Shown here one piece after another: positions 2,597 through 29,629 of a stretch of DNA of 64,000 nt (the stretch's first letter is position 1; the number at the start of each line of letters is the position of its first letter). The notes under the pieces are model-generated. The model saw only the letters and a list, made by a program, of their open reading frames with translations, had not been told where the DNA came from and searched no databases. A program made the translations under genes and the position numbers. Source of the DNA: an uncultured Candidatus Actinomarinales bacterium (GTDB lineage Bacteria > Actinomycetota > Acidimicrobiia > Actinomarinales > Actinomarinaceae); contig CALSSQ010000001.1 in the NCBI GenBank assembly GCA_943789065.1, positions 188,619 to 252,618 of the forward strand, read 5' to 3'.

Positions 2597-3811
2597 TTGA
2601 TAGGTCAAGAGTTCACCAATGAACTACTAACCCTTATATGGGTAGTGCTCTCGGTAAGTGGTGTCATACTTTTTGATGCTAAAAAGAAAAACACCTACAG
2701 TAATAAATTAAATAGCCTTGATAGCGTTTATACCAATGCAATAGAGTTAAAACACCAATTAGAAAGTACTTTTAATGAAGAAGTACAAATAATCATCGAT
2801 TTTAAGAGATTGGAGCCATATGGATTTAATTTTGGAGCACTTGGTACAAAACGAGAGAATACCGAAATCACTAATAGCAAACTTATAGAGGGTTATGACA
2901 CATTAAGAGATACTTTTTTGAACTCCTACGATATCTCAAACACTCAACTTAAGTCTAAATTTGCTTCATATATTCATAAACAGACGAATGGATTAATCAC
3001 AATAAACTTCATAGGAGTTCCTGCAGTAGGTATGGAGAGCAGAAATGATTATTTAGAAGCTCCAAAAATAATGAGATTATCAGTCAACCGTGGGTTGACT
3101 TTCGCTATGGGAACAGCACTTATCTCTCTTGGATTATTTACAGCAGGATCTTTAATCCAACAAGTATATTTCTCTGACGCAACTCAAGTTGAGACACAAC
3201 AACAGTTACGTAATCTTTTTATGATGAATGATGAAAATTCAGAGGAGTTGCGAGAATCAGAGAATATCCTTTCACAAAAAGTTAATACAGAACCAGGAAC
3301 ATATGAATCTCCAGTGTTAGGTGATGATTCTACGGAACTCTCTAATAGCGGTCTAAATGAACTCTTCAATAATATATTTAGTGAAGACGCAACTGAGAAT
3401 ATACCAGATGTTTTTGGCATGTTAGAGATTCCACAAATAAATCTTGAGCAGTATGTAGTAACAGGAACCAGTACAGAAGCATTGACTTACGGTCCTGGTT
3501 ACTATACAAAAACCTCTACACCTGGAAATCGTGGAAACGTGGGAATAGCTGGCCATAGAACTACTTATGGAGCACCTTTTTCAGATTTAGATAAATTACA
3601 AACTGGAGATGAAATTATGCTTACGGTTGGTGCTGACAAGTATAAATATATTATTGATGAGATTCTTATTGTAGATCCAGATGAAGGTGAGCGTTATCTT
3701 TACAATAGGGGAGATGAGAGAATTACTCTAACTACATGTCATCCAAAGTTTTCAGATAAGCTCCGATTAATTGTGACAGGATCCTTGGAAAAAAAAGAAC
3801 AAGTTAATTAA
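2597..3811 (+). CDS. Sortase (class E-like) with two TM helices and a cytoplasmic insert
   Basis: GNVGIAGHRTTYGAPF (His 3554-3556) and ITLTTCHPKFSDKLRLIV (Cys 3737-3739, downstream Arg). TTG start 6 nt after the substrate stop. Confidence 0.92.
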   Translation: MIGQEFTNELLTLIWVVLSVSGVILFDAKKKNTYSNKLNSLDSVYTNAIELKHQLESTFNEEVQIIIDFKRLEPYGFNFGALGTKRENTEITNSKLIEGYDTLRDTFLNSYDISNTQLKSKFASYIHKQTNGLITINFIGVPAVGMESRNDYLEAPKIMRLSVNRGLTFAMGTALISLGLFTAGSLIQQVYFSDATQVETQQQLRNLFMMNDENSEELRESENILSQKVNTEPGTYESPVLGDDSTELSNSGLNELFNNIFSEDATENIPDVFGMLEIPQINLEQYVVTGTSTEALTYGPGYYTKTSTPGNRGNVGIAGHRTTYGAPFSDLDKLQTGDEIMLTVGADKYKYIIDEILIVDPDEGERYLYNRGDERITLTTCHPKFSDKLRLIVTGSLEKKEQVN

Positions 3812-3831
3812 ATCATTTTATAATAGAAAAT

Positions 3832-27968: not shown

Positions 27969-29629
27969 TGGATCATTTCTTCAATTACCTATTCATAGTA
28001 ATTCTCAACATTTTTGCACTTTTACTTGTATTGAAAATCAGGAGAAATAAACAAAATAGTAATGATGTAATAACTGAAGCAATGATTGTTGAGGGTAATC
28101 CAAATCCAAAAAAGAATAGAAGGTCATCTAATTTTTTCAACAATCAAAAAAGCAGCAATGTATTTGTAGAGTATGAAGATTTAGACATAGGCAACTCAGA
28201 ACTTATCTATGATGGTCAACTTTTAGATCTAGCTGTTGAGAAAAAAATTGTCACAAAAAAAGGAAACTGGTATTTATACGGCGATGTAAAGCTTGGGTAT
28301 GGAAAAGATAAAGCAAAGTTTTATTTGTTGGAAAATACAATACTTGCAGATGAGATTAGCAGCTTAGTTTATAGTGCTATAGATGTAAAACTTCAACAAC
28401 AAAGATACGACTTACATAATTTAGACAATTCTGATTTAGTCAACACAAAAACACAAATTTATTCACTTAATTCTCTCCAAAACCAACAATCACTTGGAGC
28501 GATTAACCAACAGTTGGAGATTGAATTATCTGAAATATACGTAAAATCAAATACACTTAAAAAAGTTCTTGAAAATACTTTAGGTACTGAAGTCATGGTA
28601 AGTATTGATATTAGTGAAAGATTCAACCCTTTAATTACTGATCAGGAAAAGTATGCAAGTGATATTGTTTTAATGTTAAAAGAAGTGGACTATCTAATAT
28701 CAGCAGTAAGCAATATATCAAAAAATGCTAAATATTTAGATATCAAAGTTACAGATCAGATGCTTAGGGAGAAGCTAAATTTGATGACTTCCAATCTGTT
28801 TTCAATTGTATTCACTAAAAAGCCAGTTCAAAAACATAAAAACTTTGCAAAATTAAGCTTCGATGAACCTATAAAAAAAAAGCGTAATACTGGGCAGGGA
28901 AGACCCCATAAACAGATAAGCCGTAATAATCTTAAACAAAAGCCACTTGTACCCTTCGGTGCAGCTCTTTTATTAGTAGGTTTATTTATTGTTGCTTATT
29001 CAGTCAATCAAACTTTTTTCTCAACTTCAGTAATTAACGACGAGCAAAAATTATTAGAAAATCAATTTGTAGTCAACAATACAAAACTCAGTGATTTAAG
29101 AAACAAAAATTTGATTGTTGAAGGTTCAGTAGAAAACTTGGAACAAATAGACGAATTTCAAGAATCTTTTATTTCTATAGCAACTAAAACTCTTACTAAT
29201 CAGGCTGCCAAAGCCAAATTTCTTCCTGATGTAGTTGGCAGGCTTACACTTTTATCAGCAGATCTAAACCATTATGTAGTGTTTGGCGCTACAAATAAAA
29301 AATTAGAGTATGGACCCGGCTATATATTAGGTACATCTTTACCTGGTTCTGGTGGAAACTTTGGAATAGCTGGTCATCGAACTACTTATGGAGCTCCCTT
29401 TGGAAACCTGGATCGAGTAGAGATTGGTGATGATATTTTGTTTCAGACAAACTCAAACGAATTTAAATACAAAGTTGTAGAAGTAAAAATAGTTTCACCT
29501 GAAGAAAATTTTGTTCTTGGAAGCTTTGGTGATGACAGAATAACATTAACAACTTGCCACCCAAAATTTTCAGCTAAACAAAGATTGATTGTAATTGGTA
29601 AATTAGAAAAGGTAAAGGTATTCGGGTAA
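27968..29629 (+). CDS. Sortase (class E-like) with two TMs and an enlarged cytoplasmic region containing a RecA C-terminal-like domain
   Basis: GNFGIAGHRTTYGAPF (His 29375-29377), ITLTTCHPKFSAKQRLIV (Cys 29555-29557). TGATG overlap with the giant gene and TAATG overlap with the next gene. Confidence 0.92.
   Translation: MDHFFNYLFIVILNIFALLLVLKIRRNKQNSNDVITEAMIVEGNPNPKKNRRSSNFFNNQKSSNVFVEYEDLDIGNSELIYDGQLLDLAVEKKIVTKKGNWYLYGDVKLGYGKDKAKFYLLENTILADEISSLVYSAIDVKLQQQRYDLHNLDNSDLVNTKTQIYSLNSLQNQQSLGAINQQLEIELSEIYVKSNTLKKVLENTLGTEVMVSIDISERFNPLITDQEKYASDIVLMLKEVDYLISAVSNISKNAKYLDIKVTDQMLREKLNLMTSNLFSIVFTKKPVQKHKNFAKLSFDEPIKKKRNTGQGRPHKQISRNNLKQKPLVPFGAALLLVGLFIVAYSVNQTFFSTSVINDEQKLLENQFVVNNTKLSDLRNKNLIVEGSVENLEQIDEFQESFISIATKTLTNQAAKAKFLPDVVGRLTLLSADLNHYVVFGATNKKLEYGPGYILGTSLPGSGGNFGIAGHRTTYGAPFGNLDRVEIGDDILFQTNSNEFKYKVVEVKIVSPEENFVLGSFGDDRITLTTCHPKFSAKQRLIVIGKLEKVKVFG

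Follow-up and report, generated by a model that had tools for sequence, protein, structure and literature searches.

A beta3/beta4-loop residue of class-E-like sortases covaries with the P3 residue of the adjoining sorting signal in Actinomarinales

Within a 64-kb stretch of DNA from the Candidatus Actinomarina/Actinomarinales-type genome of a tiny marine actinobacterium (hereafter the window), three sortase genes were identified on the plus strand. Each of them is located directly 3' of a gene for a surface protein with a terminal sorting signal (Table 1). They are the only sortases of the window, and the three signals are its only sorting signals. The residue exactly 17 positions ahead of the His in the AGHR motif is Tyr in sortases 1 and 2, which accompany the signals IAATG and LAATG, and Ile in sortase 3, which accompanies LPVTG. 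In all three cases, a hydrophobic helix and a basic tail come after the signal. An earlier note on this DNA had drawn attention to the pairing, and every coordinate and residue that it gave was found to be correct. The position is the first residue of the beta3/beta4 loop and corresponds to Tyr229 of the class E sortase SrtE1 from Streptomyces coelicolor, a residue that lines the S3 subsite for the P3 residue of the signal (Ala in IAATG and LAATG, Pro in LPVTG). On balance it is probable that the three enzymes are class-E-like sortases in which the residue of the Tyr229 column helps to set the P3 preference of each cassette. The window thus holds a natural variant of a known, still unproven specificity rule of class E, and the covariation described below supports this rule without proving it.

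Position of the loop residue in the class E fold

To locate the residue within the sortase fold, HMMER alignments with sortases of known structure were inspected. The Tyr of the window motif GPGYY was aligned with high posterior probability to the Tyr of the GLGHY motif of S. avermitilis SrtE (5GO5), and the latter to the Tyr of the GHY motif in SrtE1 (5CUW), at a distance of 22 residues ahead of the catalytic His. In SrtE1, strand beta3 comprises V226 to H228, Tyr229 is a conserved residue of the S3 subsite and the catalytic His is residue 251 (Kattke et al. 2016, PMC5148588). Since the spacing of 22 residues fits His251, the GHY Tyr of 5CUW is Tyr229. The same column is occupied by F92 in Clostridium perfringens SrtD (4D70) and by Y128 in Thermobifida fusca SrtE (alignment including 9IOK), whose motif GPGWY reads GPGWF and GPGWA in mutant sequences of the PDB. 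The catalytic domain of sortase 1 was also modelled by AlphaFold2 (AF2) on the basis of 79 aligned relatives, with a predicted local distance difference test (pLDDT) value of 91.9. In the model, the Tyr (model residue 37) is the first residue past a short beta3 strand and is followed by a loop of ten residues, beta4 and the His. The alignments and this placement confirmed the assertion of the earlier note that the position is that of the SrtE1 Tyr.

The assignment of the enzymes is supported by their overall similarity to class E. All three sortases matched PF04203 (Sortase, peptidase C60) with 107.8, 103.2 and 96.3 bits, far above the gathering threshold of 26.6 (E-values of 4e-31 for sortase 1 and 1.4e-27 for sortase 3). 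The AGHR His, the Cys of TLTTCHP and the Arg nine residues past this Cys are intact in each of them, and all 83 relatives retain the His and the Cys. A Foldseek search of the PDB with the sortase-1 model returned the class E structures 5GO5, 5GO6 and 5CUW on ranks one to three (TM-score 0.86-0.88). Class E (NF033747) was also the best-scoring NCBIfam class for all three enzymes, but the scores of 121.8, 119.6 and 109.3 bits for sortases 1, 2 and 3 are below the curated cut-off of 160 bits, and they are therefore referred to as class-E-like. Sortases 1 and 2 possess both the Tyr at the start of the beta3/beta4 loop and the Ala at P3 of the signal that are features of class E, while sortase 3 has neither of them. 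It might be argued that sortase 3 is simply a member of another sortase class that uses LPXTG anyway, and that a comparison with the class E Tyr is then inapplicable. The scores of all three enzymes under the class E cut-off would agree with this. However, class E is the best match of sortase 3, as it is of the other two. Moreover, its catalytic domain is 52% identical to that of sortase 1, and a first tree nested it within the Actinomarinales Tyr-type clade with 98% support, so that a separate class is very improbable.

Covariation with P3 and number of evolutionary events

The sample comprised 176 related loci, and the pairing of residue and signal was assessed in about 100 cassettes. The closest genomic relatives were single-cell and metagenome-assembled genomes of Candidatus Actinomarina/Actinomarinales, the more distant ones other Acidimicrobiia. 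A flag for TGA recoded as Trp in one locus (L174) arose from the coordinate range and was discarded. In the 80 genome loci, the column is occupied by Tyr (70), Ile (8) and Phe (5). The eight Ile-type sortases among them are all orthologous to sortase 3, and each follows a signal of the form [ILF]P[FVR]TG at a distance of about 1.35 kb. The Tyr-type sortases of Actinomarina are located behind LA[ADEN]TG (26 loci, fused) or MADTG. Upstream of the sortase-1 orthologues recovered by a protein search, the signal is IAATG in six cases and IAKTG in one. Metagenomes were then scanned for the Ile type, which yielded 80 further loci, all of them with Ile. Fifty-two of these reach the signal, which has Pro at P3 in 48 cases, Gly in four (three times FGITG, once FGPTG) and Ala in none. 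The signal tails of the four cassettes with Gly (L095, L097, L126, L140) are otherwise typical.

When the data were pooled, P3 of the Ile type was Pro in 57, Gly in four and Ala in no cassette. For the Tyr type of Actinomarinales, Ala was counted at least 37 times, the MADTG clade not included, and Leu twice (YLVTG, YLITG), while Pro did not occur. P4 and P2 vary freely, but P3 never crosses the class boundary. The covariation across homologous cassettes, which the earlier note had suggested as a check of its proposal, was thus strongly positive. Outside the order, those few Acidimicrobiia sortases that have a signal nearby conform to this pattern. Tyr-type enzymes are found there with LAYTG or LAKTG and one Phe-type enzyme (L074) with LPRTG. 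A Phe-type sortase of Acidimicrobiales (P0121) is uninformative; it is encoded by a housekeeping gene beside ccm genes and has no adjoining substrate. The three cassettes of the window by themselves cannot exclude chance, since the sortase-3 clade is told apart from the Tyr-type sortases of Actinomarina by 26 of the 138 columns of the catalytic domain. With the larger set of related loci, the pattern is not chance.

The most informative relatives, a small clade found by a protein search, are members of the sortase-3 family that nevertheless read GPGYY (P0024 and P0124-P0129). They share the N-terminal helix, the RecA_C-like insert and the cytoplasmic domain with sortase 3 and are 57-65% identical in the catalytic part. 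They also occupy the same chromosomal locus, in which a giant gene is followed by the sortase, two or three open reading frames (ORFs), an SBF transporter and Rho. Their substrates and those of the Ile type have homologous tails. The sorting motifs, however, read FADTG, YAITG, YLVTG and YLITG, with Ala or Leu and never Pro at P3. In sortase 3 itself, the insert covers residues 83-137 of the cytoplasmic part (28214-28378) and matches the RecA C-terminal domain PF21096 with an E-value of 2.7e-16. According to precomputed Pfam annotation, this domain is also present in most of the sortase-3-family members listed, Ile-type and Tyr-type alike.

The first tree grouped all Ile-type sortases in a single clade, which was nested within the Tyr-type sortases of Actinomarinales. 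After the Tyr-bearing members of the family had been added, both a catalytic-domain tree and a full-length tree (556 columns, nesting support 99/98) placed the Tyr clade inside the Ile-type radiation. Such a topology implies that Tyr was replaced by Ile and then regained, and the Tyr clade is probably a reversion of this kind within the sortase-3 family. One metagenome protein that affects the tree topology, P0130 (548 aa), has 60 N-terminal residues identical to those of the Tyr-bearing P0125 but an Ile-type catalytic domain (GPGYI), and is either a natural recombinant or an assembly chimera. Irrespective of whether the Tyr clade is nested in the Ile-type family or adjoins it, the change of the residue coincided with that of P3, either on one branch or on two adjacent ones. 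The data comprise two phylogenetically independent contrasts, and both agree. Hence, the association is perfect at the class level over about 100 cassettes but rests on one or two events. Much of its weight derives from structural work, which had pointed to this residue beforehand.

Recognition of P3 and cassette architecture

The enzymes presumably discriminate between the two kinds of P3 residue, and residue 303 of sortase 1 or 453 of sortase 3 may contribute causally to this. In the ancestral state, which sortases 1 and 2 would have kept, the residue would be Tyr, and P3 would carry a backbone NH (Ala, rarely Leu). The Tyr hydroxyl would most likely accept the amide hydrogen of P3, and the bulk of the side chain would most likely disfavour the pyrrolidine ring of a Pro at this position. 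In the sortase-3 lineage, Tyr would have been replaced by Ile, and P3 of the partner would have moved to Pro and occasionally to Gly. There, the side chain of Ile, which is aliphatic and smaller than that of Tyr, and an Ala or Val at the adjoining ridge position would most likely open a hydrophobic pocket that admits Pro or the kinked backbone of a Gly. In one sub-lineage, which shares the chromosomal locus, Tyr would have been regained and with it Ala or Leu at P3. The ridge column, that of SrtE1 Ile215, contains Thr, Val or Ser in the Tyr type and Ala or Val in the Ile type, and its separation is not clean.

Several points weigh against this reading. The association amounts to at most two evolutionary events, a number too small for significance (sign test, p = 0.5). 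Monophyly of the Ile type was examined by an approximately unbiased (AU) test, from which the possibly chimeric P0130 had been left out; at p = 0.0515, one common origin is not clearly rejected. The four Ile-type cassettes with Gly indicate that the Ile pocket is not strictly Pro-specific. SrtE1, though it has Tyr, cleaves LPETG in vitro only 2-fold less well than LAETG, and its mutants Y229F and Y229A are unstable (PMC5148588). As they could not be assayed, the role of the residue is unproven even in SrtE1. In addition, the classes differ elsewhere. When 69 distinct Ile-type, seven Tyr-clade and 115 other Tyr-type sequences were compared over the 138 catalytic-domain columns, the Ile type was set apart from the Tyr clade as well as from the remaining Tyr-type sortases by five columns, namely column 303 and also columns 279, 281, 289 and 369. 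The beta6/beta7 loop differs as well, with LGSFG in sortase 3 as against LYNRG or LYDRG in the other two.

It is conceivable that the P3 preference did change, but was set by other residues (279, 281, 289, 369, ridge position 291 or the beta6/beta7 loop), the Tyr/Ile exchange being a minor contribution or a passenger. That the class-separating columns number five and not one fits this explanation, as does the conversion of S. aureus SrtA from LPXTG to LAXTG, for which PMC5148588 cites 11 mutations. On the other hand, column 303 alone among the five shows no variation within either class (Ile in all 69 Ile-type and Tyr in all 122 Tyr-type sequences). It alone also goes back, in the Tyr clade, to the state that is fixed in the outgroup, and the residue had been singled out beforehand by the structural work (PMC5148588). 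Control by the other residues is therefore rather unlikely.

A second alternative assumes that there is no useful discrimination at all. Sortases and substrates would be paired by gene adjacency, co-translation or in-frame fusion, while P3 and the loop residue drift as parts of one cassette unit. The in-frame fusions of sortase 2 and at least 26 relatives, which make a recognition code dispensable, the coexistence of cassettes 1 and 2 despite Tyr and Ala in both, and the merely 2-fold discrimination by SrtE1 (PMC5148588) are all compatible with this assumption. Drift, however, is difficult to reconcile with an Ile that is strictly conserved in 69 distinct sequences of 75-92% identity and a Tyr conserved in 122, with the confinement of P3 to its class in about 100 cassettes in which P4 and P2 are free to vary, and with the joint flip of residue and P3 on adjacent branches. 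We regard the absence of discrimination as improbable and prefer the contribution of the loop residue to P3 selection.

The earlier note had gone further and proposed a natural specificity switch that keeps paralogous cassettes orthogonal. The covariation of residue and P3 is in line with a switch, but P3 cannot keep cassettes 1 and 2 apart because both combine Tyr with Ala. Sortase 2 is, moreover, fused in frame to its own substrate, as is the norm in its family, and is thereby paired without a recognition code. With this fusion, the 2-fold discrimination of SrtE1, the occurrence of Gly at P3 and the residues that change along with column 303, the orthogonality part of the proposal is weaker than its positional part. 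A more far-reaching version is that this single loop position is a reversible toggle (Tyr for Ala or Leu, Ile for Pro or Gly) that was flipped from Tyr to Ile and back to Tyr in one orthologous cassette. The Ile and Tyr enzymes of the sortase-3 family would then be a nearly minimal orthogonal pair, and a swap of one residue, perhaps with the ridge residue, might be enough to exchange their specificities. This idea is speculative and rather unlikely.

No stop codon separates the LAATG signal, its transmembrane helix and the RKK tail from sortase 2, and the same arrangement occurs in at least 26 Actinomarina loci (among L003-L033), where the fused ORFs reach up to 3011 aa and the signal lies 255-270 residues ahead of the catalytic domain. 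In-frame fusion was also found in the MADTG clade (L019, L026, L028, L030). The free-standing sortases of the sortase-1 family (window 2591-2690; L001, L166-L172) begin with (K)SL[ITS]GQEF, a transmembrane helix and KKK, which resembles a degenerate copy of the LAATG, transmembrane helix and RKK segment opening the sortase part of the fused family. This resemblance suggests that the free-standing form descends from a fused ancestor.

Some reading frames of the island are interrupted in the window. Substrate 1 is split between frame 1 (1-1626) and frame 2 (1463-2590), whereas the orthologous loci L166-L168 have a single uninterrupted ORF of 1647 aa or more with IAATG at its end. The ORF at 4573-8436 and the sortase-2 ORF are collinear with a single ORF of 2258 aa in L004, and comparison with L005 revealed one extra base near 8431 (region 8393-8441) that shifts the frame by +1 and is due either to a sequencing error or to recent pseudogene formation. 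Downstream of sortase 3 (29629-31253), two overlapping ORFs of 345 and 215 aa replace the single gene of 520-522 aa of the syntenic loci L163 and L165, and may represent a third frameshift of the island. The minus strand encodes, at 13643-15820, a protein of 725 aa with beta-propeller repeats (SBBP) and an IF2_N-like domain at residues 36-83.

Table 1. Sortases, sorting signals and key codons of the window (aa, amino acids; TM, transmembrane helix)
Feature	Position	Strand	Remarks
Substrate 1 sorting motif IAATG	2483..2497	+	within tail ORF 1463-2590
Sortase 1	2597..3811	+	404 aa; TM1, cytoplasmic domain, TM2, class-E-like catalytic domain; key residues Tyr303, His320, Cys381
Sortase 1 Thr291 codon	3467..3469	+	aligns with SrtE1 Ile215, second residue of the S3 ridge (traced by hand through alignments)
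Sortase 1 Tyr303 codon TAT	3503..3505	+	motif GPGYY; homologue of SrtE1 Tyr229
Sortase 2 ORF	8441..10435	+	C-terminal part of substrate 2 (LAATG, TM helix, RKK), then sortase 2 in frame; key residues Tyr563, His580, Cys641
Substrate 2 sorting motif LAATG	9242..9256	+	
Sortase 2 Tyr563 codon TAT	10127..10129	+	motif GPGHY
Substrate 3	16716..27968	+	3750-aa surface protein; C-terminus with LPVTG, TM helix, basic tail
Substrate 3 sorting motif LPVTG	27867..27881	+	
Sortase 3	27968..29629	+	553 aa; TM1, RecA_C-like insert, cytoplasmic domain, TM2, catalytic domain; key residues Ile453, His470, Cys530, Arg539
Sortase 3 Ala441 codon	29288..29290	+	column of SrtE1 Ile215 and sortase-1 Thr291
Sortase 3 Ile453 codon ATA	29324..29326	+	motif GPGYI; Tyr229 column
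Sortase 3 catalytic His codon	29375-29377	+	

Comparison with known sortases

The proposal that the beta3/beta4-loop Tyr governs the LAXTG specificity of class E was never directly tested since the Tyr mutants of SrtE1 are unstable. Uncultured marine actinobacteria offer stable natural variants with Tyr, Ile and again Tyr in one orthologous family, each with the matched signal in the neighbouring gene, and such natural enzyme/peptide pairs are a good minimal pair for testing the rule. Strong discrimination would make the pairs candidates for use in orthogonal sortase ligation. Weak discrimination would mean that cassette adjacency or fusion, and not recognition, pairs sortases with substrates in these cells. 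To our knowledge, a naturally occurring Ile enzyme together with a matching Pro signal is new to the literature. A search for papers naming both Actinomarinales and sortase found none, and one on giant proteins and anchors gave only unrelated work on staphylococci and streptococci.

The closest known counterparts are SrtE1 (5CUW; Kattke et al. 2016, PMC5148588) and S. avermitilis SrtE (5GO5). What the window enzymes have in common with them is the fold (TM-score 0.86-0.88), the His-Cys-Arg triad and a cytoplasmic N-terminal extension, and, for sortases 1 and 2, the Tyr directly past beta3 and substrates with Ala at P3. What separates them is an identity of only 31-36%, scores below the NCBIfam class E cut-off and the presence of two transmembrane helices instead of one. 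The beta3/beta4 loop of the window sortases is five residues shorter than that of SrtE1 but of the same length as in 5GO5. While SrtE1 and 5GO5 are housekeeping enzymes, the window genes lie behind, or are fused to, one giant substrate each. Sortase 3 departs further from both by Ile in place of Tyr and by its Pro signal.

The column of the window Tyr is also that of Y128 in T. fusca SrtE, for which structures with Y128F and Y128A (PDB 9IV0, 9M5J, 9M2G and related entries) were released in 2025-2026. Thus, the residue is already under experimental probing by others; a paper on these mutants was not found in the literature search. In contrast to the natural variants of the window, the Y128 variants were made in the laboratory, all from one enzyme. 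The Tyr is naturally absent from C. perfringens SrtD (4D70), which has F92 in this column and cleaves LPQTGS but not LAETG (PMC5148588). It differs from sortase 3 in that it belongs to class D and to another phylum, has Phe instead of Ile and is not accompanied by a paralogous Tyr enzyme. Finally, the substitution A104H accompanied the shift of P3 from Pro to Ala in an evolved S. aureus SrtA with LAXTG specificity (Dorr et al., as cited in PMC5148588). According to this citation, the enzyme resembles the window sortases in that an analogous loop site was substituted, but it is an engineered class A sortase that carries 11 mutations in total.

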